Counted from the stretch's first letter, positions 15,182 to 42,744 are shown. The stretch is 64,000 nucleotides of DNA from Betaproteobacteria bacterium SG8_41 (GCA_001303585.1 LJTT01000002.1:5837-69836), one strand, 5' to 3'. Translations and numbers: made by a program. The notes: generated from the sequence alone by a model not told the origin.

Positions 15182-15343
15182 GCCTCTGCCTCTCCAACGC
15201 ATGACAAGCCGCATCGCGTCGGCAGCCTGCGGCCTTCGCGGGTCGCATCCCCCTCAACCGGGGCCCCTGCTCCTCCGCTCATGTCGCGCCTCTGCCTCTC
15301 CAACGCACGACAAGCCGCATCGCGTCGGCAGCCCGCAGCCTGC
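15182..15343 (-). repeat. hairpin element copy A with flanking 56-bp direct duplication (X-Y-X structure)
   Basis: X copies at 15182-15237 and 15288-15343 differ at 4 positions. The core Y at 15238-15287 contains ggtcgcatccccctcaaccggggcccctgctcc. Confidence 0.8.
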
Positions 15344-15360
15344 GTGATGCCGCGTCAGAA

Positions 15361-15387
15361 ACAAAAAAGGCGGCACGAGGCCGCCTT
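15361..15387 (-). terminator. Rho-independent terminator after rplS
   Basis: The minus strand reads AAGGCGGC-cucgu-GCCGCCUU followed by UUUUUGU, 20 nt after the rplS stop. Confidence 0.75.
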
Positions 15388-15406
15388 GCGTGAGCAGGTA
15401 TGCCGA

Positions 15407-15805
15407 TTACTCCTGCGCGGCGGCCTGCTCCACCTCTTCATTCCGTGCCGTCAGTTTCTCGCGGATGCGCGCGGCCTTGCCGGTGCGCTGCCGCAGGTAA
15501 TAGAGCTTGGCGCGCCCCACGTCGCCGCGACGCTTGACCTCGATGCTGGCGATGAGCGGCGAGTAGGTCTGGAACGTCCGTTCCACCCCCTCACCCGAAG
15601 AGATCTTGCGCACGATGAACGAGGAATTGATTCCACGGTTGCGCTTGGCGATCACCACGCCCTCGTACGCCTGCAGCCGCTTGCGCTCGCCCTCGACGAC
15701 GTTCACGCTCACGACCACGGTGTCGCCCGCTGAGAACGACGGAATCCGCTTGGCGAGCCGCTTCATCTCTTCGGCTTCAAGCTGTTTGATGATATCCATG
15801 TTCAA
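15407..15805 (-). CDS. rplS: 50S ribosomal protein L19
   Basis: [12 protein letters not shown]...[18 protein letters not shown]...[11 protein letters not shown] is a clear L19 sequence. Confidence 0.95.
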
Positions 15806-16560
15806 ACTCCTTGCAGTTCCTTCTTGTATTCATCCAGCAATGCGCGCTCCTCGGCGCTGAGCGCGCGCTGCTCCAGCAAATCCGGGCGCCGCTGCCAGGT
15901 TCTGCCCAGCGCCTGCTTCAGCCGCCAGCGGGCAATCTCGCTGTGATTGCCCGAAAGCAGCACTGGCGGCACCGCCGCCTCGCCGTACGCCTCGGGCCGC
16001 GTGTAATGCGGGCAATCCAGCAAGCCGCTCACGAATGAGTCCTGGCTCGCCGACTCCGCATCGCCCAGCGTACCCGGAAGCTGGCGCACGATGCAATCCA
16101 TTACCACCATCGCCGCAAGCTCGCCGCCCGAGAGCACGTAGTCGCCGATCGAGATCTCCTCGTCGACCGCCCGGCTAACGAGCCGCTCATCCACCCCCTC
16201 GTAGCGACCTGCCAGGAGCACCACTCCGGGCAGTGCCGCGAGCTCCATCACGCGCTCGTGTTTCAGCAACTTCCCCTGCGGCGACAGGTATATCACGTGC
16301 GTGCGCTTCGCTCCCGCGCTCTCCTGCCGCTGCCGCGCCGCGGTGAGCGCCTTTTCCAGCGGCTCGACCATCATCACCATTCCCGGCCCGCCGCCGTACG
16401 GCCGGTCGTCCACGGTGCGGTAGCTGTTGGTCGCGAAATCGCGCGGATTCCACAACACCAGCTCAAACAGCCGGCGCTCACGCGCCCGGCCGGTGACGCC
16501 GCTCTCGGTCACGGCCTCGAACATCTCGGGAAACAGCGTGACCACGTCGAACTGGTACAT
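15802..16560 (-). CDS. trmD: tRNA (guanine37-N1)-methyltransferase
   Basis: [14 protein letters not shown]...[13 protein letters not shown]...[12 protein letters not shown]. The ATG at 16560 overlaps the rimM stop. Confidence 0.95.
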
Positions 16561-17042
16561 CAGTAGTCCGCGCCCCACTCCACCCGTATCACACCCGCGC
16601 CGGGATCCACTTCGCGTATCACCTGCGCAATGAACGGGATCAGCCTCTCGCGACCGTCTTCCACGACCAGCACATCATTCGCGCCGGTTTGCACGACAGC
16701 CGTCACCCGACCGAGATCCTGCTCCACCGCGTTCACAACCCTGAGGCCGATCAAGTCGGCCCAGTAGTACTCTTCCGCTCGTGCGGCCGGCAGCGCCGCA
16801 CGCGCTACCGCCACCGTCTTTCCCTTCAGCGACGCCGCCGCCTCGCGATCATCGCAGCCCTCGATCTTGGCAAGCAGCGACTGGCCCTGTGCCTTGCCGC
16901 TGGTTACTGATTGTTCCTGCCAGCCTTCTTCCCCCTCGATCCACCAGGTCCGGTAGTCGAGGAGGCTCCGCGTCTCCGCGGTAAGTGGCTGAACCTTGAT
17001 CCAGCCCTTGACGCCATGCGGGGCGATGATCCGCCCCATCAT
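16560..17042 (-). CDS. rimM: ribosome maturation factor RimM
   Basis: The internal ATG at 17042 gives [17 protein letters not shown], the canonical RimM N-terminus. The gene sits in the rpsP-rimM-trmD-rplS order. Confidence 0.85.
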
Positions 17043-17052
17043 CACCAGTTTC

Positions 17053-17307
17053 TCAGGCGGGTTTAGGTTCACCGCGCTGCTTGACCAGCCGCGCCACGGT
17101 GTCAGAAACCTGCGCGCCCTTGCCCTTCCAGTAGGCGAGCCGCTCGCGATTGACGCGCAGCCGCTCCCGCCCCTCGGGCGCCACGGGATCGTAGAAGCCG
17201 ATACGCTCGATGAAGCGCCCGTCGCGCGCGCGGCGCGAATCGGCAACAACCAGATTGAAAAACGGGCGCTTCTTGGCGCCACCGCGGGCGAGTCGGATTA
17301 CCACCAT
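17053..17307 (-). CDS. rpsP: 30S ribosomal protein S16
   Basis: [41 protein letters not shown]. Confidence 0.95.
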
Positions 17308-17510
17308 GTTCGTATCAGTCCGAAAAGCGGAAAGGGCGTGATTTTACGCTATTTTTTCGCCTTGATGCAAGGTGGGCCGCGCATGAGGCCGGGGTCGTGG
17401 CGGGGCCCGACGAGGGGTTAATTATCTGATTGGGCGGGAGTTCGTCCGGAAGCACCCGCAGAGAGAGCCGACGCGTTAACATCGCCGGCGCATCCAACCC
17501 AGGAGCCACC

Positions 17511-18362
17511 ATGAGCCCCAACACCACCCCCGAGGCCCGGCGCATCGAGCGCGCCGCGGCCGAGCGCTTCGACGCGACGTTGAGCATAGCGCCCGATGCA
17601 TCGGGCCTCGAGGAGCTCGCGCGCAACCTCGAACACCGCTCGCACCGCCGATACGCCGAACGTCCCGTGCCACCCGAGTTGCTGCAGGTGCTGTTCGCGT
17701 GCGCCTTTTCAGCGCCGTCCAAGTCCGATCTGCAGCAAGCCGACATCATTCATGTGAGCGATGCCGCGCGGCGCAGGGCAATCGTCGAGACCATTCCCGA
17801 CATGCCCTGGATCATGAACGCGCCCGTCTTCCTCATCTTTTGCGCCAATAACCGGCGGATCCGCCAGATCGGCGAGTGGCGCGGCAAGCCTTTTGTGAAC
17901 GAGCATCTCGACCACTTCATGAACGCGGCAGTGGACGCGGGTCTCGTCATGATGAATTTCATCCGCGCCGCCGAAGCTGCGGGCCTGGGAACGTGCCCGA
18001 TCAGCGCGGTGCGAAACCGTGCCGATACGGTGAGCGGCGTCCTCGAGCTTCCCCAAGGCGTGTTTCCGGTGGCCGGCCTGTGCGCAGGCTACCCCGCCGA
18101 AGCCGGCCGCATTACACCGCGGCTGCCACTGAACGTGACCGTCCACGAGGATCGCTACAGCGAGTCAGAGCTGCGCGAAAAAATCGAGGCCTACGACCGC
18201 AGGCGCCACGCCGTGCTGCCCTATCGCCGGCAGCGCAACATCGAGCGATTCGGTGAAGCGCCGTTCTACGGCTGGTCGGAGGACAAGGCGCGCCAGTATG
18301 CGGTGCCGGAGCGCACCGATTTCGGCGCGTTCATCCGCAGGCAGGGCTTCAGCCTCAAGTAG
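17511..18362 (+). CDS. nitroreductase-family NAD(P)H oxidoreductase
   Basis: The ATG at 17511 is preceded by AGGAG. RSHRRY...PSKSDLQ...ISAVRN motifs fit the NfsA-like nitroreductase fold. Confidence 0.75.
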   Translation: MSPNTTPEARRIERAAAERFDATLSIAPDASGLEELARNLEHRSHRRYAERPVPPELLQVLFACAFSAPSKSDLQQADIIHVSDAARRRAIVETIPDMPWIMNAPVFLIFCANNRRIRQIGEWRGKPFVNEHLDHFMNAAVDAGLVMMNFIRAAEAAGLGTCPISAVRNRADTVSGVLELPQGVFPVAGLCAGYPAEAGRITPRLPLNVTVHEDRYSESELREKIEAYDRRRHAVLPYRRQRNIERFGEAPFYGWSEDKARQYAVPERTDFGAFIRRQGFSLK

Positions 18363-18368
18363 CGCGGC

Positions 18369-18482
18369 GTGATGGGTGATGGGTCGAAAAGCCGTGACTT
18401 GGCGAACTCGGCAGGTCACGAGATCGGTGTTTCGGTGTTTCGGTCTTGCGCCCTCACGCGCTCCCGCCCTCGCGCTCCCGCG
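18369..18482. repeat. cluster of short tandem repeats between convergent genes
   Basis: gtgatgg x2 (18369-18382), cggtgttt x2 followed by cggtcttg (18425-18448), and cgccctc(a)cgcgctcc x2 (18449-18482). Confidence 0.75.
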
Positions 18483-18554
18483 GCAATCGAAGTAAGGCTC
18501 GTCGCGACGGGATTCCGGATCCGGAGGCGCGCATGAGGAATGCGCCGTCACAAG

Positions 18555-19907
18555 TCAGCGCATTCCCGGGAACATTCCTTTCATCGAGCGCATCATCTTC
18601 GCCATCCCCCCTTTCGACATCATTTTCATCATCTTCTGCGTCTGCTCGAACTGGTTGAGCAGACGGTTCACCTCCTGGACGGAGACGCCGGCCCCGGCCG
18701 CGATGCGCCGCTTGCGCGATGCTTTTATGACCTCAGGCTTGGCGCGCTCCTGCGCGGTCATCGAGTTGATGATGCCCTCGAGTCGGCAGATCGCGCGATC
18801 GTCCATCTGTGGCGCGCCCTGCGCCATTCGCGCAAGATCGCCGGGCAACTTGTCGAGCAAGCCCGCCACCCCGCCCATCTTTTTCATTTGCGCGACCTGT
18901 TGCTTGAAGTCCTCGAGGTCGAAACCCTTCCCGGACTTCACCTTGCGGGCGAGTTTCTCGGCTTCGGCGTGGTCGACGCTCCTGCGCACGTCCTCGATCA
19001 GCGAGAGCACATCGCCCATCCCGAGAATGCGCGAGGCCATGCGGTCCGGATAGAAGGGCTCGAGGGCGTCGAGCTTCTCGCCCACGCCTGCGAACTTGAT
19101 CGGCTTGCCGGTGACCTGCCGCACCGACAGCGCCGCGCCACCGCGGGCGTCACCGTCAAGCTTGGTGAGAATGACGCCCGTCAGCGGCAGCGCCTCTCCG
19201 AACGCCTTCGCGGTATTGACGGCGTCCTGACCCTGCATCGCGTCAACCACGAACAGCGTCTCCACCGGCTTCAGCGCCGCATGCAGCGCGGTGATCTCCC
19301 GCATCATCGCCTCGTCAATCGCAAGGCGTCCGGCGCTGTCGACGATCAGCACGTCAGCGTAGTGCTTGCGCGCATAATCGAGCGCCCGCTGCGCGATATC
19401 CACGGGGTCTTCGCCGACGGCCGAGGGAAAAAATTCGGCCTCGACCTGCTGGGCCAGCGTGCCGAGCTGCTCGATCGCCGCCGGCCGGTACACGTCGCAG
19501 CTGACGAGCAGCACCTTTTTCTTGAGCTCGCGGCGCAGCCAGCGCGCGAGCTTGCCCGAGGTCGTCGTCTTGCCCGAGCCCTGGAGGCCGGCCAGCAGAA
19601 CGACCGCCGGCGGTTGCGTGGCGAGATCGAGCGCATCGTTTTTCTCGCCCATCAGCGCCATGAGTTCCTGATGCACCACCGCGACCGCCGCCTGACCTGG
19701 TGTCAGGCTGCCGACCACCTCCTGACCGAGCGCTTTCTCGCGCACCCGCGCGACGAAATCCCGCACGACCGGCAGCGCAACGTCGGCCTCAAGCAGCGCG
19801 ACGCGCACCTCGCGCAAGGCATCCTGAATGTTGGATTCGGTCAGGCGCGCCTCGCCGCGCAGCGTCTTCATGACCCGCGAGAGGCGGTCGGTCAGGTTGT
19901 CGAACAT
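18555..19907 (-). CDS. ffh: signal recognition particle protein Ffh
   Basis: MFDNLTDRLSRVMKTLRGEARLTE..., GLQGSGKTTT, DTAGRL-like SAGRL, and a Met-rich C-terminal M domain. Confidence 0.95.
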   Translation of the reverse strand: MFDNLTDRLSRVMKTLRGEARLTESNIQDALREVRVALLEADVALPVVRDFVARVREKALGQEVVGSLTPGQAAVAVVHQELMALMGEKNDALDLATQPPAVVLLAGLQGSGKTTTSGKLARWLRRELKKKVLLVSCDVYRPAAIEQLGTLAQQVEAEFFPSAVGEDPVDIAQRALDYARKHYADVLIVDSAGRLAIDEAMMREITALHAALKPVETLFVVDAMQGQDAVNTAKAFGEALPLTGVILTKLDGDARGGAALSVRQVTGKPIKFAGVGEKLDALEPFYPDRMASRILGMGDVLSLIEDVRRSVDHAEAEKLARKVKSGKGFDLEDFKQQVAQMKKMGGVAGLLDKLPGDLARMAQGAPQMDDRAICRLEGIINSMTAQERAKPEVIKASRKRRIAAGAGVSVQEVNRLLNQFEQTQKMMKMMSKGGMAKMMRSMKGMFPGMR

Positions 19908-19935
19908 CGGCGTGAGGTTGGTGTAGACTCGTGAC

Positions 19936-20766
19936 GTGCCGGAAATTCTACCGCATCTAGCCAACGCGCTGCTCTATGCAGTGCTCGCATTGTACTTCTG
20001 GCGCACGCGCTGGCCGCGCGCCACGGAGGCGGAAGCGCCTGGCGCATCCTTCAGCGCGTTCGAGCATTATGCGGTGCTGGTCCCGCTGGCGCTCCATACC
20101 GTGCTGCTGGCGCGCTCAGCATTCTTGCCGGACGGGTTGCACCTGGGGGTCGGCAACGCCGTCTCGGCAATCCTGTGGTTGACCGTGCTGATTTACTGGA
20201 TCGGAAACTTCTTCTACCGATTGGACGGCCTGCAGGCGCTGGTGTTGCCGATCGCCGCGGCTGCCGTGCTGCTGCCGGTCCTGGTGCCGTCGCCCAGTCC
20301 GCTGCCCCACACCGAGCTCATGGTATTCAAGGTGCATTTGGTCATTGCGATGCTGGCCTACAGCCTGTTCACCATTGCGTCGCTTCACGTCCTCCTGATG
20401 ACGCTGCTCGAGCGTCGGCTGCACGACGGCGCCCTGCCGCGCGCGCTCAGCCAGCTGCCGCCATTGCTGACGATGGAAAAGCTGCTGTTCCGAATCATCT
20501 GGGCCGGCTTCATCCTGCTCACGGCGACCCTCGTGACCGGTGTCGTCTTCACGGAAGAGCTGTTCGGCAAGGCGGCAAAACTAAACCACAAGACCGTGTT
20601 CGGGGTCGTGTCTTGGATCATCTTCGCGGCGCTGCTGTGTGGCCGCCACGTCTACGGCTGGCGCGGCCGTGTCGCCGTGCGCTGGACGCTCGCTGGCTTC
20701 CTTGCCCTCGTGCTGGCCTACGTGGGCAGCAGGTTCGTGCTCGAAGTGATACTTGGCCGGGCCTAG
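19936..20766 (+). CDS. cytochrome c assembly family inner-membrane protein (YpjD/CcsA-like)
   Basis: 276-aa polytopic membrane ORF divergent from ffh, as in E. coli and Pseudomonas. The C-terminal WRGR...AYxGSRFV motif is shared with YpjD. Confidence 0.75.
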   Translation: MPEILPHLANALLYAVLALYFWRTRWPRATEAEAPGASFSAFEHYAVLVPLALHTVLLARSAFLPDGLHLGVGNAVSAILWLTVLIYWIGNFFYRLDGLQALVLPIAAAAVLLPVLVPSPSPLPHTELMVFKVHLVIAMLAYSLFTIASLHVLLMTLLERRLHDGALPRALSQLPPLLTMEKLLFRIIWAGFILLTATLVTGVVFTEELFGKAAKLNHKTVFGVVSWIIFAALLCGRHVYGWRGRVAVRWTLAGFLALVLAYVGSRFVLEVILGRA

Positions 20767-20857
20767 CATCCACCGCAACCCGCCGCGGGTGTTTGGCTCT
20801 GACAAACACTGAATCAGGATTGAGCGCCCCGGACTTCCGCATCCGCCATTCGGCAGC

Positions 20858-20887
20858 TTGACATGCCTTGTTGCGCCGCTGAATACT
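20858..20887 (+). promoter_or_regulatory. putative sigma70 promoter (TTGACA-N18-AATACT)
   Basis: A perfect -35 hexamer lies at 20858-20863 and a 4/6 -10 at 20882-20887, upstream of the CorC-family gene. This is sequence inspection only. Confidence 0.25.
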
Positions 20888-20917
20888 AAATTTTTCCCTT
20901 CATCGAGCGACCCCACA

Positions 20918-22219
20918 TTGGAAACGATCCCCGAGTCGACCCTGTTCATCGCGTTGATCATCCTGCTCGCGATTTCCGGCTTCTTTTCCATCTCGGAGAC
21001 GAGCATGGTGGCGCTCAACCGCTACCGGCTGAAGCATCTCGTGCAAAGCGGTCATACCGGTGCCAAGCTCGCGTCCAATCTGCTCGCCCGCACCGACAAG
21101 TTCCTGGGCATGGTGCTGTTCGGCAACAACCTGCTCAACGTCGCAACGGCCCTGGTCGTGGGCGAGATCGCCATACGCCACCTCGGCAACAGCCAGGCCG
21201 CGCTGCTGGTGGCAACTGCAGCGGCAACGTTCGCCATCCTGGTCTTCAGCGAGATCACGCCCAAGGTGCTCGGTGCAACCTATCCCGAGCGCGTCGCGCT
21301 GCCGGCCAGTTACGTGCTGACGCCATTGCTTCGCATCGCGCAACCGGTGGTCTGGTTCGTGAACCTGTTCGTGCAAGCGCTGCTCTGGATATTGCGTTTG
21401 CGGCCGACGGCGAGCGCGGGCGAGCACAAGCTGTCGGTCGAAGAACTGCGCACCCTCGTGCTGGAGACAGGTTATCTCCCGCAAAAGCATCAGAGCATCC
21501 TGCTCAATCTGTTCGAGCTCGAGGCGATCACGGTGGATGACGTCATGGTGCCGCGCAGTCAAATCGAAGCCTTTGACCTTGATGCGCCGCTCGACGCCAT
21601 TCGCCAGCAGATTGCCACGGCCCATCACCGGCGCCTGCTGGTCTACCGCGGCCACCTGGACGAGGTGGTGGGCACGCTACGGGTGCGCAGCGTGCTCAAT
21701 CTGGTGCAGAACGAGGAGCTCACGAAGGAACGCCTGCGCGAGATCATTCGCGAACCGTCCTTCGTGCCGGTTGGCACGCCCTTGTTTTCGCAGTTGCAGA
21801 ATTTCCAGGAGGAGCGGGACCCTTTGAGCCTGGTGGTGGATGAGTACGGGGAGCTGATGGGCCTCGTCACGATGGAGGACATCCTCGAGGAGATCATCGG
21901 CGAATTCACGACCCAGTCCCCCCTGCAGACCCGGGGCTTCGCCGAGCAGACCGATGGCAGTGTTCTCGTCGAAGGCTCGACGCTGCTGCGCGATCTCAAC
22001 CGCAAGCTGGGCTTCGGTTTCCCGCTCGACGGGCCGAAGACGTTGAATGGGTTGATCGTCGAATATCTGAGAGATATTCCGGAGCCGAACACCAGCGTAA
22101 AGATCGCGGGCTACCCCCTCGAGATCGTTCAAACGCAGGATCGGGTGGTCAAAGCCGTGCGAATCTTCCCCCCGGCGGTGACTAAGGGCCGCCCTGAGGC
22201 CCCGGGGGAGGAAAAATAG
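20918..22219 (+). CDS. HlyC/CorC-family transporter-associated protein (DUF21 + CBS pair + CorC_HlyC)
   Basis: LAISGFFSISETSMVALNRYRL is the DUF21 opening, followed by CBS-pair and C-terminal transporter-associated regions. The start is uncertain: TTG at 20918 is proposed because the ORF-track start at 20858 coincides with the TTGACA box. Confidence 0.75.
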   Translation: METIPESTLFIALIILLAISGFFSISETSMVALNRYRLKHLVQSGHTGAKLASNLLARTDKFLGMVLFGNNLLNVATALVVGEIAIRHLGNSQAALLVATAAATFAILVFSEITPKVLGATYPERVALPASYVLTPLLRIAQPVVWFVNLFVQALLWILRLRPTASAGEHKLSVEELRTLVLETGYLPQKHQSILLNLFELEAITVDDVMVPRSQIEAFDLDAPLDAIRQQIATAHHRRLLVYRGHLDEVVGTLRVRSVLNLVQNEELTKERLREIIREPSFVPVGTPLFSQLQNFQEERDPLSLVVDEYGELMGLVTMEDILEEIIGEFTTQSPLQTRGFAEQTDGSVLVEGSTLLRDLNRKLGFGFPLDGPKTLNGLIVEYLRDIPEPNTSVKIAGYPLEIVQTQDRVVKAVRIFPPAVTKGRPEAPGEEK

Positions 22220-22316
22220 GGAAAAATACGCTTTACACAGAACCCCCGAACGTGCATCATTTTGTCAACAATCGCCTCTAACCTATTGGTTAGCCGGGTC
22301 AATCGGGAGATTCAAC

Positions 22317-23540
22317 ATGGCAACTGCTGCCGCCGCCAGACGGTCGGAAGTCAAGGAGTTTAACTTCAGCTGGGTCGGCACGGACCGGGGCGGCAAAACC
22401 GTGCGCGGGGAAATGCGCGCGGTCGGCACGGCGCAAGTCAATGCGTTGCTGCGGCGCCAGGGCATCCGCGTGGTCGAGGTCAAGCGCCAGCGGCTCCGTG
22501 GCGGCACGATTACAGAGAAGGACATTACCCTGTTCACTCGCCAGCTGGCCACCATGATGAAATCCGGCGTGCCGCTGCTCCAGGCGTTCGACATCGTCGG
22601 CAAAGGCCACACCAATGCTGCCGTGTCGAAGCTTCTTTTCGACATCAAGACCGAGGTCGAGACCGGTGCGAGCTTGAAGCAGGCTTTCGAAAAGCATCCC
22701 CTCTACTTCGATGCGCTCTTCTGCAACCTGATCGGCGCGGGCGAAGCCGCCGGTATTCTCGATAGCCTGCTCGACCGCCTCGCGACCTACAAGGAAAAGA
22801 TCCTCGCCATCAAGAGCAAGATCAAGTCGGCGTTGTTCTACCCGGCGTCAATTGTTGTTGTCGCCTTCGTGATCACGTCGATCATCATGATCTTCGTCAT
22901 CCCCTCCTTCAAGTCGGTGTTCGCCAGCTTTGGCGCCGACCTTCCCGCCCCGACGCTGATGGTGATGGCCGCCTCGGATTTCTTCGTCGAGTACTGGTGG
23001 GCCATCTTTGGCGGCGTCGGCTTTGCCGGGTGGTTCTTCTTCTACACCTGGAAACGCTCCATCAAGATGCAGATGTTCATGGACAAGTTGATGTTGCGGA
23101 TTCCCGTTTTCGGCGGTCTGGTTCGCAAATCGGCGATTGCGCGGTGGACCCGCACGCTTGCGACCATGTTTGCAGCCGGTGTGCCGCTCGTCGAGGCGCT
23201 TGATTCGGTTGCGGGCGCGGCCGGCAACTACGAGTACTACGTCGCGACCAAGAAGATTCAGGGCGAGGTCTCGACCGGTTCGAGCCTCACCTCCGCGATG
23301 GCGGGCACCGAGGTTTTCCCGAATATGGTCATCCAGATGGTGACCATCGGCGAGGAGGCGGGCTCGCTCGACGCCATGCTCTCCAAAGTCGCGGATTTCT
23401 ATGAGGCGGAAGTCGACGATGCGGTCGAGGCCCTCTCGAGCCTTATGGAGCCGATGATCATGGTGGTGCTGGGCACGCTGATCGGCGGGCTCGTGATCGC
23501 CATGTACCTGCCCATCTTCAAGATGGGCCAGGCGGTCTGA
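22317..23540 (+). CDS. pilC: type IV pilus assembly platform protein PilC (GspF family)
   Basis: 407-aa ORF with duplicated GspF domains. TRQLATMMKSGVPLLQAF and TRTLATMFAAGVPLVEAL are the paired signature helices. Confidence 0.9.
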   Translation: MATAAAARRSEVKEFNFSWVGTDRGGKTVRGEMRAVGTAQVNALLRRQGIRVVEVKRQRLRGGTITEKDITLFTRQLATMMKSGVPLLQAFDIVGKGHTNAAVSKLLFDIKTEVETGASLKQAFEKHPLYFDALFCNLIGAGEAAGILDSLLDRLATYKEKILAIKSKIKSALFYPASIVVVAFVITSIIMIFVIPSFKSVFASFGADLPAPTLMVMAASDFFVEYWWAIFGGVGFAGWFFFYTWKRSIKMQMFMDKLMLRIPVFGGLVRKSAIARWTRTLATMFAAGVPLVEALDSVAGAAGNYEYYVATKKIQGEVSTGSSLTSAMAGTEVFPNMVIQMVTIGEEAGSLDAMLSKVADFYEAEVDDAVEALSSLMEPMIMVVLGTLIGGLVIAMYLPIFKMGQAV

Positions 23541-26425: not shown

Positions 26426-26600
26426 GGGTTCAAGTTTCAAGTTTGGGCGATGGCTGTACGCGAAGTTTCTCGCATTGAACTTCGAACATGGAACTTTGAA
26501 CCCGGAACTCGAAACTCGAAACTCGAAACTCGAAACTCGAAACTCGAAACTCGAAACTCGAAACTCGAAACTCGGAACCCGGAACCCGGAACATTGAACG
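26426..26600. repeat. asymmetric hairpin/microsatellite: GAAACTC heptamer array (9 perfect units plus degenerate flanks) opposite a short complementary arm
   Basis: The left arm is gttcaag tttcaag tttgggc (26426-26447). The right arm is a GAACNNN-type heptamer series from about 26474, with 9 exact GAAACTC units at 26511-26573, then ggaaccc x2. It lies between convergent yacG and the Nudix gene. Confidence 0.9.
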
Positions 26601-34253: not shown

Positions 34254-34260
34254 GTCCCAT

Positions 34261-34446: not shown

Positions 34447-34458
34447 GACCCCGCCTAG

Positions 34459-34554
34459 TTCAAGGTTTCAGGTTCAAGGTTCAAGGTTCAACGTTCAAGG
34501 TTCGGCGCGAAGCTCGGAACTTTGAACTCGGAACTTTGGACATTGAATCCGGCG
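34459..34554. repeat. hairpin with GTTCAAG heptamer arms downstream of lpxC
   Basis: The left arm has 7 heptamers: gttcaag gtttcag gttcaag gttcaag gttcaac gttcaag gttcggc. The right arm is roughly complementary: ctcggaa ctttgaa ctcggaa ctttgga cattgaa tccggcg. Confidence 0.85.
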
Positions 34555-34573: not shown

Positions 34574-35485
34574 TTAGGCTGGCTGTGGCTGCCAGGCAAG
34601 GAACACAGGCGCATCTTCCACGCGCTCGAAACTCGCGAATTCCCAGGCCTTGCGATCTTCCAGCAGGCGCCGCAGCAGCAAATTGTTGAGCGCGTGCCCC
34701 GACTTGTATCCGGAGAACGCCCCGATCAGCGGGTGGCCCAGCAGATAGAGATCACCGATCGCGTCGAGGACCTTGTGTTTGACGAACTCATCCTCGTAGC
34801 GTAGTCCGTCAGTGTTGAGCACGCGGTACTCGTCCATGACGATGGCGTTGTCGAGGCTCCCGCCCAGTGCGAGGCCTTGACCGCGCATGGTCTCGACGTC
34901 CTGCATGAAGCCGAAGGTGCGCGCGCGGCTGACTTCCTTGACGTAGGAGGTCGTGGAGAAATCAACGGCGACCGATTGCCGCATCTTGTCGAACACCGGG
35001 TGATCGAAGTCAATGCTCAGCGACAGCTTGAAGCCATTGTGCGGCTCGAGCCGAACCCATTTCTCGCCTTCTTCAACCTCGACCGGGTTCAGAACGCGGA
35101 TGAACTTCTTGGGCGCAACCTGCTCTTCAATGCCGGCCGACTGAAGCAGGAATACGAAGGGACCGGCGCTGCCATCCATGATCGGCACTTCCGGCGCCGA
35201 GAGGTCAACGTAGGCGTTGTCGATGCCAAGGCCTGCGAGCGCGGACATCAGGTGCTCAACGGTGGAGATTCGAACACCGCCCTGTTCGAGACAGGAGGAA
35301 AGGCGCGTATCGCCCACCGAGTGTGGCGTGGCCTTGATCTCGACGGGCTGCGCGAGGTCGGTACGGCGAAAGATGATCCCGCTATTCGCCGGCGCCGGTC
35401 GCAGCGTCATGTAGACCTTCGCGCCGGTATGCAAACCGACACCGGTGGCCCGGATCAGATTCTTGAGCGTACGCTGATGGATCAA
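34574..35485 (-). CDS. lpxC: UDP-3-O-acyl-N-acetylglucosamine deacetylase
   Basis: [24 protein letters not shown]...TVEHLMSAL...[10 protein letters not shown]. Confidence 0.95.
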
Positions 35486-35772
35486 CTGAAAACTTTCTGA
35501 TTTTTCATGTTGTTACAGCGCGAATTTTAACATGCCGCGGTGCTGCCATGCAAAAAGATTGTAACCAAACGTGATTCGCCCTCCGCTTTCGACACTTAGG
35601 ATGACCGATCACGGCGTGCGAACGGGTATCCGTTGGCATACAAGCCCACGACAACGTGTCGCCGCCAGGCGACGCTGGTCGCTCCAACACCCCCAGTTGA
35701 GCCGCCTCGGCACCGGCCCTGCGCCCGTGAGCGTCGAGTCCGGTCTACCCGCCTCGCATTGCAGTAAGGCGG

Positions 35773-36936
35773 CTAATCAGCCTGCTTGCGCAGGAACGCC
35801 GGGATATCAAGCATCTCGACGCCGGATTGCCGCATCGCCTCGATGGTGGCGTCGCGGTTGCGCTTCGAGCGCATGACCGCAGGCATTTCAAGCGCACCGT
35901 AGTCCACGTCGAGCGGCTGATTGTCGGTTCCGGTCTTCGTGGTCACGACGGTCAGGGGTTTCGGCTGCTGGCGTATCGCCGGCTTGCCAAGCCCGGTCGC
36001 GACGATGGTGACGCGCAGATTGTCGTCCAGCGCCTCGTCGTACACCGTGCCTACGATCTTGTGCGCGCCGTCTGCCGCGAAGGACCCGATGGTCTCCATC
36101 ACATCGTAGAGTTCCTGGAGCTGGAAGGACTCCTGGTTTGCGGAGATGTTGACGAGCACGCCGCGCGCATCGGCAATGTTGATGTCCTCGAGCAGCGGGC
36201 ATGCCACTGCTTGCTCCGCCGCCAGCCGCGCCCGGTCGGACCCTGCTGACTTGGCCGAGCCCATCATCGCCATTCCCATTTCCGCCATGACCGTGCGCAC
36301 GTCTGCGAAGTCGACGTTGATCATGCCCGGACAACTGATGATTTCCGCGATGCCGGCGACAGCGCCGTGCAGTACGTCGTTTGCCGCCCTGAATGCCTCG
36401 TGCAGCGTCACCTTGTTGCCAAGCACCTGCATCAGCTTGTCATTGGGTATCACGATCAATGAGTCGACATACTCGCCGAGTTGGTCGAGGCCTTCGAGCG
36501 CGGTTCGCTGGCGCTTGCCCTCGAAGCCGAACGGCTTGGTGACCACCGCCACCGTGAGAATACCGAGCTCCTTGGCGATCTCGGCGACGACCGGCGCGGC
36601 ACCCGTGCCGGTGCCTCCGCCCATGCCCGCAGTAAGGAAGAGCATGTCGGCCCCTGCGATCGTCTCCGCGATGCGCTCGCGGTCCTCCAGAGCCGACTGG
36701 CGCCCGATTTCCGGGTTCGCGCCGGCGCCCAGCCCCTTGGTGATATTTGTGCCGAGCTGCAGTTGCACCTTCGCCTGCGTGCGCTTGAGTGCCTGCACGT
36801 CAGTGTTAGCCGAAATGAACTCGACCCCTTTGACGCCCTGCACGATCATATGGTCAACGGCATTTCCGCCGCAGCCGCCCACGCCGACGACCTTGATCAC
36901 GGCTTCCTGCGCCTGGGAATCTACGATTTCAAACAT
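35773..36936 (-). CDS. ftsZ: cell division GTPase FtsZ
   Basis: GVGGCGGNAV, the GGGTGTGAAP tubulin signature, and NTDVQAL. The ATG at 36936 has an AAAGGAGA SD. Confidence 0.97.
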   Translation of the reverse strand: MFEIVDSQAQEAVIKVVGVGGCGGNAVDHMIVQGVKGVEFISANTDVQALKRTQAKVQLQLGTNITKGLGAGANPEIGRQSALEDRERIAETIAGADMLFLTAGMGGGTGTGAAPVVAEIAKELGILTVAVVTKPFGFEGKRQRTALEGLDQLGEYVDSLIVIPNDKLMQVLGNKVTLHEAFRAANDVLHGAVAGIAEIISCPGMINVDFADVRTVMAEMGMAMMGSAKSAGSDRARLAAEQAVACPLLEDINIADARGVLVNISANQESFQLQELYDVMETIGSFAADGAHKIVGTVYDEALDDNLRVTIVATGLGKPAIRQQPKPLTVVTTKTGTDNQPLDVDYGALEMPAVMRSKRNRDATIEAMRQSGVEMLDIPAFLRKQAD

Positions 36937-37011
36937 TGAGTCTCCTTTCAATTGATCAATGACCCAGAATGGCTAAACCCCTATTTCACGGATACTGAAT
37001 GCCTCATTGCC

Positions 37012-38250
37012 CTAGAAATTTCCCGCAAACCACGATTTCATTCTTTCCAGCACCTGCTGGAACGAGCTGATGTTCATGCGCGCCGCTTCCTTGAGCCGGT
37101 GCTGCTCGAGACCCGCGAGCAGCAGGCCAACCCCGGTCGAGAAGCGCGGATGGCGTACGTATTCCGCCAGCGTCCCGCCGTAGCCCGGATGCCCGACGCG
37201 CACCGGCATGTGGAAAAGCTCTTCGCCGAGCTCGACCATTCCCTGCATGACACTCGAGCCCCCGGTAATCACAACGCCCGCCGAAAGCAGCTCCTCGTAG
37301 CCGCTGCGGCGCAACTCCGACTGCACTAGCGAATAGAGTTCCTCGACGCGGGGCTCGATCACTTCCGAGAGCGTCTTGCGCGAGAGCTGGCGCGGCTCCC
37401 GGTCGCCGAGCCCCGGCACCTCGACCATGTCCTGCGGATCGGCAAGCTGGGATAGCGCGCACCCGTAGCGCTCCTTTATCTCCTCGGCGTCCTTGGTGGG
37501 CGTGCGCAGGGCCATCGCGATATCATTGGTTATCTGGTCGCCGGCGATCGGTATCACCGCGGTATGGCGAATCGCGCCGTGCGTGAACACAATGAGGTCG
37601 GTCGTCCCGCCGCCGATGTCCACCAGTGCCACACCGAGATCCTTCTCGTCCTCGGAGATGACCGCCAGCGCGGACGCGAGGGGCTGCAGGATGAGATCGC
37701 GCACCTCCAACCCGCAGCGGCGCACGCACTTCACGATGTTCTGCGCCGCGGATACCGCGCCGGTCACGATGTGCACCTTGACCTCGAGCCGCACCCCGCT
37801 CATGCCAAGGGGCTCGCGCACATCCTCCTGCCCGTCGATGATGAATTCCTGGTTGAGAACGTGCAGGATCTGCTGGTCGTTCGGGATCTGCACCGCCCGC
37901 GCGGTGTCTATGACGCGCTCGATGTCGACCTGGGCGACCTCTTTGTCCTTCACCGGCACCATGCCCTGCGAGTTGAAGCTGCGCACGTGGCTGCCGGCGA
38001 TCCCGGTGTAGACCTCCCGGATCTTGCAGTCGGCCATGAGCTCGGCTTCCTCCAACGCGCGCTGGATGGCGTTCACCGTTGTCTCGATGTTGACGACCAC
38101 GCCTTTCTTGAGTCCGCGCGACGGATGCTGGCCCATACCGATGATCTCGAACCCGCCCTCTGGCCGGAGCTCGGCGACGATCGCGACGATCTTGCACGTC
38201 CCGATGTCCAGCCCAACCAACAGCTTCTTGTTGTCTCTTGGCTTGCTCAT
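37012..38250 (-). CDS. ftsA: cell division protein FtsA
   Basis: LVGLDIGTCKIVAIV...VDIGGGTTDL actin-fold motifs. Lies between ftsQ and ftsZ. Confidence 0.95.
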   Translation of the reverse strand: MSKPRDNKKLLVGLDIGTCKIVAIVAELRPEGGFEIIGMGQHPSRGLKKGVVVNIETTVNAIQRALEEAELMADCKIREVYTGIAGSHVRSFNSQGMVPVKDKEVAQVDIERVIDTARAVQIPNDQQILHVLNQEFIIDGQEDVREPLGMSGVRLEVKVHIVTGAVSAAQNIVKCVRRCGLEVRDLILQPLASALAVISEDEKDLGVALVDIGGGTTDLIVFTHGAIRHTAVIPIAGDQITNDIAMALRTPTKDAEEIKERYGCALSQLADPQDMVEVPGLGDREPRQLSRKTLSEVIEPRVEELYSLVQSELRRSGYEELLSAGVVITGGSSVMQGMVELGEELFHMPVRVGHPGYGGTLAEYVRHPRFSTGVGLLLAGLEQHRLKEAARMNISSFQQVLERMKSWFAGNF

Positions 38251-38268
38251 TACGACGTCCCCGGCCCC

Positions 38269-39009
38269 CTATCCAGTCTCGCGTCCACGCTTCGGCGCCG
38301 TCTCCGGAGGACCAGCCTCGGGAATACGCACCGCAAATCCGTTTGCATAGCGAAGGTCCACATACTCGATGGGCTGCTCCAGCGGCGCCACGGCACGGTC
38401 GTACGCCGCAACGAAGCGGTCAAAGCGGGCTTCGATCTGCTCGCGCCCGAGCTCCAGCGTGAGCCCGCCCTCGAGCTTTACCTGCCAGGCGCGTCGAGGC
38501 GAGACCTGCACCTGCACCGGCCGCAGGCCGATGCCGGCAAGTCGCCGGCGGAAGTATTCGTACTGGATGGCCATTTCCTTGGCCGCTCCGGGCGGGCCTG
38601 TGAATACGGGCAGCGGCCCGCTGTAGGCTGCCTCGAAGCGCTCGCCGTACGTGTTCACCAGTGCGGTTTTGGCCCAGCGCGCCAGCGGCTGGTGCTCTTC
38701 AAACCTGACCTCAAGCCGGTCCGGCCAGTGCCGCCGCAGCTCGACGCTTCGCACCCATGGCAACCGCGTGAAAGCATGCCGAATGGCATCGAGGTCGAGG
38801 GTAAAGAAATTCCCCTTGAGTTCGCGCCGCACGATGATCTCGATCTGGTGGCGAGTGACATGCGAGGGCGCGATTTCGACCCGGACTTCACGCAGCGGGA
38901 ATATCGGAAGCTGTATCGTGAACGCAACCGCCACGAACAGCGCGAGCAGCACCGCGATGCCGTAGAGCGCGCTGGCGGCCGCATTGAGGATGTCCGGTCT
39001 ATCCCACAT
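38269..39009 (-). CDS. ftsQ: cell division protein FtsQ
   Basis: The internal ATG at 39009 is followed by a TM helix and then POTRA-like RHQIEIIVRRELKGNFFTLDL. Position fits the dcw cluster. Confidence 0.85.
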   Translation of the reverse strand: MWDRPDILNAAASALYGIAVLLALFVAVAFTIQLPIFPLREVRVEIAPSHVTRHQIEIIVRRELKGNFFTLDLDAIRHAFTRLPWVRSVELRRHWPDRLEVRFEEHQPLARWAKTALVNTYGERFEAAYSGPLPVFTGPPGAAKEMAIQYEYFRRRLAGIGLRPVQVQVSPRRAWQVKLEGGLTLELGREQIEARFDRFVAAYDRAVAPLEQPIEYVDLRYANGFAVRIPEAGPPETAPKRGRETG

Positions 39010-39062
39010 GGCTTCGCCCGTTTCGGGTACCGAGCTCCGGGTTCCGGTTTCGAGGTGTCGGC

Positions 39063-39974
39063 TTAGCCCACATGCGCCGACTCCAATATCCGCACGCACA
39101 AATCTTCAAACGAGACTCCTCTGGCGCGGGCCGCCATCGGCACCAGGCTGTGGTCCGTCATCCCCGGCACGGTGTTGACCTCGAGCAGGTAAGGATCGCC
39201 CGCACGGTCCAGCATCAGGTCGACGCGCCCCCAGCCGCAGCAGCCCAGAAGTTCGAAGGCGGCGAGGGCTACCTGGCGCATGCGTTGCTCCTCCGCGTCC
39301 GGCAATCCGCAAGGGCAGATATAGCGCGTGTCATCGGCGACGTATTTCGCCTGGTAGTCGTAAAACGTCCGCGGTGTCTCGAGGCGTATCAATGGCAGCG
39401 GCTCGTCGTCGAGAATTCCGGCAGTGAGCTCAACGCCCTCGATAAAGGCTTCGGCGATCACCGCCTTGTCATAGCGGGCGGCCAGCTCATACGCCTCGCC
39501 GAGCGCCTCGACCGACGCGGCCTTCGTCATGCCGATTGACGAGCCTTCGCTTGCGGGCTTCACCATCACCGGCAGTCCCAGTCGGTCCACCACCCGCAAG
39601 TAGTCGGTTCGCGGCGTGAGCAGCTCATAGGCCGGGGTTGGCATTCCGGCTGCCTGCCACAGGAGCTTGGTGCGCCACTTGTCCATGGCGAGCGCGCTCG
39701 CCATGACGCCACTGCCGGTATAGGGAATGCCGAGATATTCGAGCGCGCCCTGCACCGTTCCGTCTTCGCCGAAACGGCCGTGCAACGCGACAAAGGCGCG
39801 CTCGAATTTCCCGGCGGCGAGCTCGTCCAGCCGCTGCTCGCGCGGATCGAAGGCATGAGCATCCACACCGCTCCTCTTCAGGGCAGCGAGCACCATCGCC
39901 CCGCTCTTGAGCGAGATCTCCCTCTCGGCCGAGCGGCCGCCCATTAACACCGCGACCTTTCCAAAATTACCCAT
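39063..39974 (-). CDS. ddl: D-alanine--D-alanine ligase
   Basis: [22 protein letters not shown]...[14 protein letters not shown]...EVNTVPGMT. Confidence 0.95.
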
Positions 39975-40115
39975 CCATCACTCTCCGGCCTGCCCATTCG
40001 CTTGGGCATCCGCACGTGCACCTTCGGGGTCGCACCCCACCAAGAACGTGGGGCCCCTGCTCCGCCCTCCGGTGCCCCCGCCCATCAAGACCGCTACCTT
40101 TCCAAACTTGCTCAC
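39937..40115 (-). repeat. hairpin element copy B inside the ddl 5' end, with diverged duplication of the ddl start (X-Y-X)
   Basis: X copies at 39937-39974 and 40078-40115 have 31 of 38 positions identical. The core Y at 39975-40077 contains ggggtcgcaccccaccaagaacgtggggcccctgctcc. Confidence 0.8.
39978..40115 (-). CDS. leader ORF created by the duplication (45 codons; N-terminus mimics Ddl)
   Basis: The GTG at 40115, 6 nt after the murB stop, reads [14 protein letters not shown]..., runs through the element, and ends at the TGA at 39980-39978, 3 nt before the ddl ATG. Translation is untested. Confidence 0.35.
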   Translation of the reverse strand: MSKFGKVAVLMGGGTGGRSRGPTFLVGCDPEGARADAQANGQAGE

Positions 40116-40121
40116 GACCGT

Positions 40122-41111
40122 TCACCGTTCACCCACAATGCGCACTTCGCGCTCCAGTTCGATCCCGAACTTTTCGCGCACGCTGCGTTCCGCCAGCTCG
40201 ATGAGCGCCTCGATATCGGACGCGCTTGCCCCGCCGGTATTGACGATGAAGTTCGCGTGCTTATCCGAGATCTGTGCACCGCCGATGACGCGCCCCTTCA
40301 GCCCGCAGGCCTCGATCAGCCGCGCAGCGTAATCGTTCGGCGGATTGCGAAACACGGAACCGGCGTTGGGTTTCTCGAGCGGCTGCGTCGAGAGACGCCT
40401 TTGCAGCAGTCCCTTGATGATGCGGCGCGACGACTGGCGGTCGCCGCGGGGAAGACGGAAGATCGCGGCAACGAACCATTCTTTGGGCCGATCGGGGGTG
40501 AACGATAGAGAGTCAGGCTCGCCGGTTTCTGGTACCGGTTGCCCCACGCCTTGATCCTTCAGGCGCACGTGGCGGTAGTCGATCTCGTAGTCCTCCGGAA
40601 AACGCTCGCGCAAGGTGCCGCTGCGATCGATCGTCACTGCACGCGCCACGATCTTCCAGGTCTCGCCGCCGAAACAGCCTGCATTCATCGCGAGCGCGCC
40701 GCCCACCGTGCCCGGTATGCCCGCGAGGAATTCCGCCCCCCTGAAACCATGCATTGCCGCAAAGCGCGCGACTTTCGGGCTCGCGATGCCGGCCTCGGCG
40801 TAGATCTCGCCGTGCCCGTTTTCGACGCGCCCGACCCGGATCGCCCGCAGCGCCCACTGCATCAGGATCACCGTGCCGCGCACGCCCGCGTCGCGCACCA
40901 GCAGGTTGCTCCCGAGGCCCACGATGTGCACCGGCTCGCTCACCGACAGGGAACGCAGGAAGGCGGTCAGATCGTCGAGGTCGGCCGGAAAATACGCCCG
41001 GTCCGCGGGACCGCCGACGCGCCAGCTCGTGTGGCGCGCCATCGGCTCGTCCTGCCGCAGCTCCCCGCGCAGAGTCACGACCCGTTTCTCAGGGTCCGTT
41101 ATCGCGTTCAT
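40122..41111 (-). CDS. murB: UDP-N-acetylenolpyruvoylglucosamine reductase
   Basis: [11 protein letters not shown]...GLGSNLLV...GSVFRNP. The start overlaps the murC stop. Confidence 0.95.
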
Positions 41112-42538
41112 GCCGCTCCTCCGTTTACGCTGCGCACCCGGTTTGCGAGTTGGATGGCCACAGTGCCTATGGAACCCGCGCCCATCGTGAGCACCACATC
41201 GCCGTCGCGCGCCAATGCCAGGATCTCAGCCGGCAACTGGGACACCTTTTCCACAAAGACCGGTTCCACCTTGCCCTGCACCCTCACAGCCCGTGCAAGC
41301 GCCCGCCCATCGGCCGCCACGATGGGCGCCTCACCCGCCGCGTAAACCTCGGTCAGAATGACCGCGTCCGCTGTGGAAAGGACCGTGACGAAGTCCTCGA
41401 AGCAATCGCGGGTGCGCGTGTAGCGATGGGGCTGGAATGCAAGCAGAAGCCTTCGCTTCGGGAAAGCGCCGCGCGCCGCCGCCAGCGTCGCTGCCATCTC
41501 CGCGGGATGGTGGCCGTAATCGTCAATCAGCGTGAAGCTGCCTCCGCCCGGCAGCCGCACCTTTCCGAACTGCTGGAAGCGGCGGCCGACTCCCTTGAAC
41601 TGGGCGAGCGCCCGGGCGATCTTCTTCTCGGGCACACCCAGCTCCAGACCGACGGCAACCGCCGCGAGCGCATTGCGCACGTTGTGCACGCCCGGAAGGT
41701 TGAGCGTAATGGCCAGCTTGCCGTTGCCGGACGCGGCGCCTGAAGGGCCCGACCGCTCGACCTGGAAGCGCATTTGCCCGCCACTCGCGATCACGTCAAC
41801 AGCGCGTACATGCGCGTCAGGAGAAAGTCCGTAGGGAGTGACCGGCTTGCTCAACTGGGGCATGATGGTCCGGACGTTCGGGTCATCGATGCAAAGGACG
41901 GCCATGCCGTAGAACGGCAGGCGCTGCAGGAAATCGACAAATGCCTGCCGCAGCTTGTCCAGAGAATGGTCATAGGTCTCCATGTGGTCAGCGTCGATAT
42001 TGGTGACCACGGCGACCACGGGTTGCAGGTAAAGGAAAGATGCGTCGGATTCATCGGCTTCGGCCACGATGAACTCGCCGGCACCGAGCTTGGCATTGCT
42101 GCCCGCCGCTTCGAGCCTGCCACCGATCACGAACGTGGGATCCAGTCCGCCTTCCGCGAGCACGCTCGCGACGAGACTGGTCGTGGTGGTCTTGCCATGG
42201 GTGCCGGCCACCGCGATGCCTTGTTTCAGCCGCATCAACTCGGCGAGCATCAGCGCCCGCGGAACCACCGGGACCTTCGCGCCGCGCGCGGCAACGACCT
42301 CGGGGTTGTCGTCCCGCACAGCACTCGATATGACGACCGCGTCGGCGCCCGCGACATGCTCGGCGGAGTGACCGCTGCGGATGCGGGCGCCAAGCCCGCG
42401 CAAGCGGCGCGTCACCGCGTTGTCCGCAAGATCGGAGCCACTCACCGCGTAACCGAGATTGAGCAGCACCTCGGCGATGCCGCACATGCCGGCGCCGCCT
42501 ATCCCCACGAAATGCACATGCTTCACCTTGTGTTTCAT
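41108..42538 (-). CDS. murC: UDP-N-acetylmuramate--L-alanine ligase
   Basis: [25 protein letters not shown]...[12 protein letters not shown] at 42538 with an AAGGAG SD. Confidence 0.95.
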
Positions 42539-42744
42539 CGGCGGCAGCTCCTTGCCCGCGACACGACACAGCCGGCGGCCCACGCCGATCGCGGCCGGTC
42601 GCATCCCCTCGCAAAAACCGCAAGGGGCCCCTGCTCCCTGCTCTCAGCGGTCCCGCCTATCCCCACGAAATGCACATGCTTCACCTTGTGTTTCATCGGC
42701 GGCAGCTCCTTGCCCGCGACACGACACAGCCGGCGGCCGACGCC
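42495..42744 (-). repeat. hairpin element copy C inside the murC 5' end, with a 92-bp near-perfect duplication (X-Y-X)
   Basis: X copies at 42495-42586 and 42653-42744 differ at a single position (42581 c versus 42739 g). The core Y at 42587-42652 contains ggtcgcatcccctcgcaaaaaccgcaaggggcccctgctcc. Confidence 0.9.
42535..42696 (-). CDS. leader ORF created by the duplication (53 codons; first 15 residues identical to MurC)
   Basis: The ATG at 42696 carries a duplicated SD. The ORF reads [15 protein letters not shown], crosses the element, changes frame relative to murC, and stops at a TGA that overlaps the genuine murC ATG (ATGA at 42538-42535). Translation is untested. Confidence 0.35.

Follow-up and report, generated by a model that had tools for sequence, protein, structure and literature searches.

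Here we describe a short structured repeat that occurs three times within a 64,000-nucleotide stretch of DNA from Betaproteobacteria bacterium SG8_41 (GCA_001303585.1, LJTT01000002.1:5837-69836; this whole stretch is called the window), each time accompanied by a long direct duplication of local host sequence. The element is a real and undescribed family, and on balance we favour the interpretation that it is a structured repeat of the repetitive extragenic palindromic (REP) kind, organised in the manner of mycobacterial interspersed repetitive units (MIRUs), with the duplications being tandem units of variable copy number that rebuild gene starts and relay translation. The interrupted gene stays intact because the tandem units re-create its Shine-Dalgarno (SD) sequence and start region; the upstream copy keeps the old start, and an open reading frame (ORF) running from there through the hairpin, here called a relay ORF, stops at the true start or no more than 3 nt from it, which would preserve translational coupling.

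On the plus strand the pattern GGTCGCAYCCC-N(8-16)-GGGGCCCCTGCTCC has exactly three matches in the 64 kb (core hairpin copies 1 to 3, Table 1), and read on the minus strand all three have the form GGAGCAGGGGCCCC-hairpin loop-GGGG(A/U)GCGACC. The minus strand is the sense strand for every neighbouring gene (rplS, a gene for a 556-aa secreted protein, and the dcw genes ftsW-murG-murC-murB-ddl-ftsQ), and all three copies are co-oriented with their host genes. A covariance model of the core, built from 65 copies both foreign and from the window, recovers only these three at E ~1e-11, with no other window site below E = 0.6, such that pattern and model both bear out the three co-oriented copies reported in the preliminary description of this DNA.

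Several features of the core indicate a conserved structure. First, among the 145 copies examined, with structure judged on the 65 that are distinct, 24 alignment columns are invariant, while the stem extension co-varies: pair 18-32 is GC in 39 copies and AU in 19, pair 19-31 is CG in 36, UA in 9, AU in 7 and GC in 5, and none of 500 shuffles equalled the covariation score observed for the inner stem, placing on a broader footing the co-variation previously noted in the window. Secondly, the element extends beyond the core, and consists of a copy-specific outer stem (P1), an invariant GGAGCA/UGCGACC helix with a GGGG internal loop, a CCCC/GGGG stem with the co-varying extension, and a 3′ end that is often an SD-like GGAG(G) ahead of the next start codon. 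Thirdly, the two flanks of one locus, which form P1, pair better with each other than with foreign flanks (-21.1 versus -17.3 kcal/mol, p = 6e-15), and pairing is stronger on the GGAGCAGGGG strand than on its complement (-21.1 versus -18.7 kcal/mol, p = 1e-14) because the G·U pairs sit on the former. The outer stem at ddl has also undergone compensatory change between the window and the orthologous copy in L094 (GCACC/GGTGC versus GCGCT/AGGCGC; L numbers denote loci from other genomes). Loops of the GCGNAGC type, which are stable as DNA mini-hairpins, are frequent among the copies.

The direct repeats described earlier beside each copy are likewise present. At site 1, by rplS, the two repeat copies (Table 1) are 57 nt long with 93% identity (66-67 nt in a gapped alignment); at site 2, in ddl, they span 39937-39973 and 40078-40114 (37 nt, or 37-38 nt, 84% identity); and at site 3, in murC, they are 92 nt long with a single mismatch and extend to 111 nt at 92%. 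Because these are, heptamer arrays aside, the only long high-identity direct repeats spaced at most 400 nt apart in the window, the association of element and repeat is not due to chance. At site 1 the element follows the rplS terminator and precedes the secreted-protein gene (ATG at 15154); the orthologous site is empty in L126 and L127, has the window arrangement in L124 (protein 97% identical), and is occupied in L125 by a large composite cluster with the host segment in single copy. Together with the empty murB-ddl sites below, these comparisons of orthologous junctions show that the element plus its duplication is the derived state.

At the murB-ddl junction the insertion lies after ddl codon 13 (...TTG ATG GGC GG^). 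The site is empty in L120 (MurB 90% identical) and L123 (83%), where the murB stop is followed by 13-25 nt and then GTGAGCAAG...ATGGGCGG^CCGCTCGG, and is filled at one identical nucleotide, after ATGGGCGG, in the window, L121, L122 and L094. L121 (MurB 86%) has a perfect 38-nt repeat around an insert of ~190 nt with a degenerate core, L094 has a 55-nt repeat, and L122 MurB is 82% identical. The filled inserts carry GGAGAG and TGA directly ahead of the second start, and the ortholog alignment reveals 4-5 nt of microhomology at both junctions (GGGCG on the left, GGTG on the right). Because there is no older element copy upstream, the ddl case is a true insertion coupled to a 38-nt duplication; a simple tandem duplication as the sole origin is ruled out here by that same lack and by the clean empty sites. 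The absence of the insert from L120, the closest dcw relative sampled, would fit a precise loss by recombination between the repeats. Heptads of the type GGTGAAC overlap the murB stop (window 40116-40135), with two in the window, three in L120, four in L121, and many degenerate ones in L094.

At the murG-murC junction the element sits after murC codon 15 (...GTG GGG ATA GGC GG^), and the insertion point, after GG(N)ATAGGCGG, is identical in all genomes compared. The duplicated murC segment and the intact cores differ in number, with one segment and no core in L121, two segments and one core in the window, L122 and L123, and three segments and two cores in L094 (period 155 nt). In L121, (GAAGGCR)n heptads, a hairpin-less GGATGCGACC and then the 3′ arm come before the single segment. 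From alignment by eye, the window sequence that separates the murG stop from the first repeat copy may be the remnant of an older element copy minus its hairpin, and the orthologous stretch in L121 still ends in GGAUGCGACC and then the 3′ arm. The motif cccgaaggcag upstream of the repeats was considered as a degenerate older core and rejected, since it occurs only in the window and L085 and at murC is part of the orthologous heptad-rich spacer; the stretch is possibly what is left of an element that lost its hairpin. The (GAAGGCR)n heptads directly follow the murG stop in variable number (window 42745-42782, L121 1395-1430, L123 1812-1860), lie within the open relay ORF, and could be derived from the motif GAGCAGG GAGCAGG in an old element copy whose hairpin was lost. 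The longest murC ORF (41108-42604, minus strand) opens within the element, at an ATG that precedes the conserved start at 42538 by 22 codons, and automatic annotation could misplace the murC start; the same risk applies to ddl.

Table 1. Positions of the element copies, flanking repeats and relay ORFs in the window
Feature	Position	Strand	Remarks
Downstream repeat copy, site 1	15182..15238	-	Element 3′ arm (CGCGAAGGCCGCAGGCUGCCGAC) plus host segment X2, continuous with host in the empty sites L126 and L127
Core hairpin copy 1	15241..15273	-	GGAGCAGGGGCCCC-GGUUGAG-GGGGAUGCGACC; 46.3 bits, E 2.9e-11
5′ arm of copy 1 (GCGACAUGAGCGGA)	15274..15287	-	Includes (A)UGA, a motif usual in 5′ flanks of family A
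Upstream repeat copy, site 1	15288..15344	-	Diverged 3′-arm-like stretch (A0) plus host segment X1
X2, duplicated, now functional ddl start (AUG GGU AAU ... AUG GGC GG)	39937..39974	-	
Whole insert at murB-ddl junction	39975..40077	-	5′ arm, core, 3′ arm, ~35 nt, SD-like GGAGAG, UGA; absent from the orthologous sites in L120 and L123
ddl relay ORF, 45 codons + stop	39978..40115	-	From old ddl start through hairpin; UGA 3 nt before new ddl AUG
Core hairpin copy 2	40028..40063	-	Within former 5′ end of ddl; 45.5 bits
X1, original ddl start (GUG AGC AAG ... AUG GGC GG)	40078..40115	-	6 nt past murB stop; now opens the 45-codon relay ORF
Downstream repeat copy, murC site	42495..42586	-	Holds the true murC start (AUG at 42538-42536)
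murG-murC relay ORF, 83 codons + stop	42535..42786	-	AUG overlaps murG stop (AUGA); UGA overlaps true murC AUG (AUGA)
Core hairpin copy 3	42597..42637	-	Inserted after murC codon 15; 48 bits
5′ arm of copy 3 (GACCGCUGAGAGCAG)	42638..42652	-	
Upstream repeat copy, murC site (pseudo-start)	42653..42744	-	End of 3′-arm-like stretch, murC SD, AUG, first 15 codons
Stretch from murG stop to first repeat copy	42745..42782	-	(GAAGGCA)-type heptads plus GCAGACC

At both the murC and ddl sites the repeat copies have genome-specific sequence in common within one genome that differs between genomes. The identical insertion points, taken with this sharing within genomes, indicate that the sites are inherited and the units homogenised, by concerted evolution or re-duplication, while unit number changes; high identity between repeats therefore does not date the insertion. 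The number of tandem units does differ between related genomes, with the murC segment present one to three times, ddl either empty or filled, and arrays of up to four units.

The relay ORFs that begin at the murC pseudo-start have 53 codons where the unit is 158 nt (window, L122 and L123); in L094, with a unit of 155 nt, there are two such ORFs of 51 codons each, and all terminate in ATGA or TAATG. From the old ddl start the ORFs are 45, 44 and 75 codons long in the window, L094 and L121 (units of 141, 135 and 228 nt), with stops 0-3 nt ahead of the true start; this ORF is present in three of the four filled genomes, a pattern search having found no start codon on the upstream copy of L122. 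All five genomes have an open ORF that begins with the ATG overlapping the murG stop (83, 34, 36, 35 and 90 codons), and in each the ORF's own stop overlaps a murC-type start, even in L121 with its hairpin-less remnant only; in all five genomes examined the relay stop is 0-3 nt from the true murC start. A conserved peptide encoded by the core was ruled out: because murC and ddl read the core in different frames, a peptide is not the conserved entity. The relay ORFs are, on this sequence evidence, probably translated, keeping coupling across the insert, and such translation would account for the retention and homogenisation of the upstream start copies.

A further set of loci, here called family A, shares the layout [..GGCGGC ATGA][GCAG-core-3′ arm-about 30 nt-GGAGG][GGCGGC ATGA-gene 2], the single copies having the ATGA junction duplicated by 10-20 nt. 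The stop of the upstream gene is either the TGA within the first junction copy, which precedes the core by 4-5 nt, or a TAG at 13 nt from the core on that side; the downstream gene takes its start from the second junction copy, whose ATG now has the consensus GGAGG before it. An in-frame relay ORF of 36-39 codons is open from the first-junction ATG through the hairpin to the TGA on the real start in 8 of 12 copies, with lengths that vary by multiples of three (binomial p = 0.019). A scan for stop-start coupling in all frames was too noisy in GC-rich DNA to be of use beyond family A. In L054 the second junction copy continues, 67-110 nt 3′ of the core (core 4564-4604, minus strand), into a half core (GAAGCAGTGGCCCCGCACG...), which may encode the N-terminus of the downstream ORF.

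A scan with the exact pattern, using one genome per species, yielded at least 118 stretches with the element, almost all of them from metagenome-assembled genomes (MAGs) of uncultured Burkholderiales, "Betaproteobacteria", Casimicrobiaceae, Thiobacillus or Sulfuricella. Several carrier MAGs are titled Streptomycetaceae, Enterobacteriaceae or Bacteroidota (L045, L050, L055, L069, L070, L087, L096, L105, L109, L112 and L114), which probably reflects mislabelling or mis-binning of betaproteobacterial contigs. A phage or plasmid origin was rejected, there being only 2 matches among 2.9 million viral contigs; these are exact cores in two IMG/VR 'viral' contigs (L128 2522-2555 and L129 7824-7854). 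Rfam contains no family for the element, whether the whole window is searched at the gathering threshold or positions 39850-42850 at E <= 10; a full-text literature search with the core sequences gave unrelated primer matches only, and a keyword search gave REP and REPIN papers, none on this hairpin family. The subfamilies are distinguished by their flanks, and some are composite clusters in which the core alternates in orientation (L003, L005, L111 and L125). Composite clusters in L111 (634-922), L125 (1040-1440), L003, L019, L033, L041 and L101 contain the core together with the variants GGTCAGATCCCC...GGGGCCCCTCTTCC and GGTCGCATCCCCGCAAGCGGGGC, and there too the orientation alternates.

Duplication is not a universal companion of the element. 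For 108 copies from other genomes the 5′ flank was compared with its own downstream region and, as a cross-locus control, with foreign downstream regions; a locus-specific repeat was scored in 24 copies (22%) above the 99th percentile of the control and in 33 (31%) above the 95th, which rules out a flanking duplication at every copy and leaves the pattern of the window, where every copy is bracketed, as that of a minority. Repeat lengths span ~10-137 nt, including ~10-20 nt for duplicated ATGA junctions, 36-94 nt, and 137 nt in L103. At about 20 loci the element and its flank recur in tandem as 2-4 units, nearly identical and with periods of 108-143 nt. In several antisense cases (L013, L028, L030, L004/L085 and L095) the repeats hold the 3′ or 5′ end of a gene on the other strand, such as rho in L028 and L030 and ilvD in L004 and L085. 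Because gene ends are duplicated on the other strand too, duplication takes place at the level of DNA, and the cases that survive are those that leave genes intact.

Independent assemblies (L001, L124, L121-L123 and L094) show the same architectures, which are therefore not artefacts of assembly. That the window comes from a short-read MAG would favour an artefact, and the 3′ half of the core loosely resembles type I-E repeats, as a degenerate CRISPR-like (clustered regularly interspaced short palindromic repeat) mini-array would; however, with the architectures found in at least six independent assemblies, either explanation is scarcely credible. A CRISPR-like array is ruled out because the segments between cores are local and near-identical rather than unique spacers and there is no Rfam CRISPR-DR match. 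As stated in the preliminary description, no transposase-like or cas-like ORF is evident in the window.

The preliminary description had interpreted the repeats as long target-site duplications of a new transposon class, and this is partly supported, the association being significant and empty sites existing; the footprint is not uniform, given the frequency of 22-31%, the spread in length and the arrays, and we prefer the tandem-unit reading. Made explicit here, that view would be of a non-autonomous mobile element whose enzyme, encoded elsewhere, makes wide staggered cuts and a long target-site duplication at each insertion, with older copies having lost theirs. The empty sites, the clean X-element-X arrangement at ddl with nothing upstream, the strong enrichment of repeats beside the element, and the duplication of gene ends on either strand are all as such an element would leave them, and strong conservation of the core across genera suggests a protein partner. 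We nevertheless consider it unlikely, because a range of ~10-137 nt is unlike any fixed stagger, 69-78% of copies are without a locus-specific repeat, and arrays of 2-4 units with copy-number change at one inherited site point to unequal exchange rather than repeated transposition. The remnant of the 3′ arm that opens the upstream repeat at murC and rplS also fits homology-driven events, and no transposase was found in the window or the fetched loci, although this is a weak test. Known miniature inverted-repeat transposable elements (MITEs) and insertion sequences likewise have empty and filled sites and direct repeats of the target flanking the insert; the present element differs from them in having no family-wide terminal inverted repeats (its outer arms are copy-specific), no transposase in the window or the fetched loci, a repeat length that is not fixed, and most copies with no detectable repeat.

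The borders suggest how the tandem units could arise. GC-rich microhomology is found there, the murC, ddl and ilvD sites having GGCGG-type motifs at their 5′ junctions, and the upstream repeat copies at murC and rplS open with what remains, in diverged form, of the 3′ arm of the element itself. Because the range of lengths misfits a fixed staggered cut and the borders show microhomology, short-homology unequal exchange or template switching is favoured, and we infer that the duplications come from short-homology unequal recombination or replicative template switching at GGCGG, (A/G)TGA and 3′-arm remnants, not from staggered cuts by a transposase. A nascent strand would exit the host at a GGCGG or (A/G)TGA motif, copy a donor element, and rejoin the host by homology, either at a resident remnant or in the start region; rejoining upstream of where it left would generate a duplication, and rejoining at the point of exit only a junction-length repeat. 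Later unequal exchange would alter unit number, recombination between repeats would empty a site precisely, and quasipalindrome-type template switching could hold the outer stem complementary. REP-mediated duplication join points and quasipalindrome correction have reportedly been described by Shyamala et al. (1990), Ripley (1982) and Dutra and Lovett (2006). The present loci resemble template-switch and short-homology events in their variable-length duplications with GC-rich border microhomology, in having the element at the join point, and in the maintained complementarity of the arms; such events are known as sporadic mutations, whereas here the product is recurrent, inherited and apparently selected.

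The element shares much with REP sequences, bacterial interspersed mosaic elements (BIMEs) and REPINs: its hairpin is short, GC-rich and bordered by invariant sequence of the GGAGC...GCGAC type, it is present in many dispersed copies and several subfamilies, some of which form clusters of alternating orientation, and it occurs in ordered tandem clusters that include the flanks. It differs in that the window copies are singlets inside operons and gene 5′ ends, not mainly after convergent genes, and in being accompanied by junction and gene-start duplications and relay ORFs, with local repeats at three of three window copies and 22-31% of the others. We know of no case in which REP insertion duplicates its target.

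This raises the question of whether it is a classical REP/REPIN system, in which a single-copy REP-associated tyrosine transposase (RAYT, an HUH enzyme) encoded elsewhere would move the hairpin as single-stranded DNA, with P1 serving as IS200/IS605-like guide-target pairing and the tandem units being secondary 'ordered REPIN clusters'. The core does resemble the REP consensus GGAGC...GCGAC (PMC2817692 table), and ordered tandem REPIN clusters "including the flanking sequences" have been described in Pseudomonas fluorescens SBW25, by a mechanism that is not known (PMC3116915). The composite clusters of alternating orientation, the complementarity of the 3′ arm to the 5′ flank or target, and the frequent GCGNAGC-type loops would also be accommodated. 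However, IS200/IS605-type insertion creates no duplication, the window copies are not inverted doublets, and the core itself has no GTAG head, its head being GGAGCAGGGG, although in one subfamily only a (G)TAG does lie 13 nt upstream of the core, where it is also the stop codon of the upstream gene. The G·U asymmetry favours a structure on the sense strand, though single-stranded DNA of that strand would look alike. No RAYT was seen in the window or by tblastn with a RayT sequence in 0.95 Mb of loci, a weak test, and taken together we find this explanation decidedly unlikely. The earlier statement that the element belongs to no described class stands in so far as there is no Rfam or literature match, and is too strong in view of the tandem REPIN clusters (PMC3116915) and the MIRU-like layout.

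The MIRU-like organisation is seen in several respects. The element is intercistronic in operons and co-oriented with genes, its tandem units vary in copy number between related genomes, and the unit ORFs overlap flanking stop and start codons, giving a translational coupling that is predicted here. Mycobacterial MIRUs are reportedly located inside operons and have ORFs overlapping the neighbouring stop and start codons, as Supply et al. are said to have described in 1997 and 2000. The two differ in phylum and are presumably unrelated in sequence, and we claim no membership; the present units are 106-158 nt (up to 228 nt) long, are built around a strictly conserved co-varying hairpin, and contain genuine host coding sequence, namely the first 13-15 codons of ddl and murC.

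The preferred place of the element is between co-directional genes, as a rule that is not exclusive. Rough ORF calls gave both neighbours for 102 copies; of these, 47 run in the same direction as both genes and 19 are antisense to both, and the clearest cases lie at stop/start overlaps (ATGA) or in the initial 0-45 nt of the downstream gene. This enrichment and the G·U pairs on the sense strand would be expected of a host-evolved, immobile cis-regulatory RNA, such as an mRNA-stabilising or processing hairpin, with the repeats being incidental local tandem duplications. Such a role is very improbable, as the element occupies dozens of unrelated loci per lineage, is patchy among close relatives with sites that are empty, and includes copies antisense to both neighbouring genes.

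Several observations weigh against the interpretation of the repeats as relay-forming tandem units. About 55 of the 102 copies are not in a co-directional sense context by the same rough ORF calls, and the long repeats at three of three window copies contrast with 22-31% elsewhere. Open frames are common in 70%-GC DNA, and the family A value of p = 0.019 is modest. At ddl, with no older element copy upstream, insertion and duplication at least there can happen together. The strict conservation of ~26 core nucleotides across genera implies a trans-acting factor, and a RAYT or other enzyme may be encoded elsewhere in the carrier genomes. Finally, locus-specific variants are common to both junction copies and, as the complement, to the 3′ arm (L070, L077 and L096), such that the P1 3′ arm is complementary to a duplicated, partly host-specific junction, and this could reflect guide-like or fold-back insertion chemistry. 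Extended further, this would make the element a mobile 'translational-coupling cassette' with its own 5′ stop and its own 3′ SD, its junction chosen by pairing of the 3′ arm with the target (P1) and its integration templated, either target-primed or by fold-back with template switching, which we regard as quite improbable. Were it true, integration would inherently duplicate a variable stretch of target, so that landing inside essential gene starts spares the host, by a chemistry unlike that of DDE, HUH or serine/tyrosine recombinase systems.

If the favoured reading of relay-forming tandem units is right, a selfish or semi-domesticated repeat can settle the most constrained of sites, the stop/start overlaps and the first codons of murC and ddl, which are essential for the cell wall, and polarity is avoided because the duplicated start and read-through ORF hand ribosomes on to the real gene. 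A large uncultured clade would then have its own hairpin-based parallel to mycobacterial MIRUs, independent of them, and with it a natural system for termination-reinitiation relays, concerted evolution of micro-arrays and REP-like spread; the copy-number polymorphism could serve as a strain marker.

Other repeats are found in the same regions. A second, unrelated palindromic repeat of the CCCTCTCCC...GGGAGAGGG type often adjoins the hairpin element or occupies neighbouring spacers, and is located at L126 880-985 (the trmD-rplS spacer) and in L005, L038, L043 and L056. Heptanucleotide arrays occur in the window at 26506-26578 (AACTCGA x10.4), 34458-34503 (GTTCAAG x6.6), 49524-49554 (GTGACCG x4.4) and 60481-60511 (ATGGGCG x4.4), with similar arrays in related loci, e.g. 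L109 and the L094 murB-ddl spacer. The sole Rfam match in the window at the gathering threshold is a bacterial RNase P class A RNA at 54446-54977 on the minus strand (274 bits).

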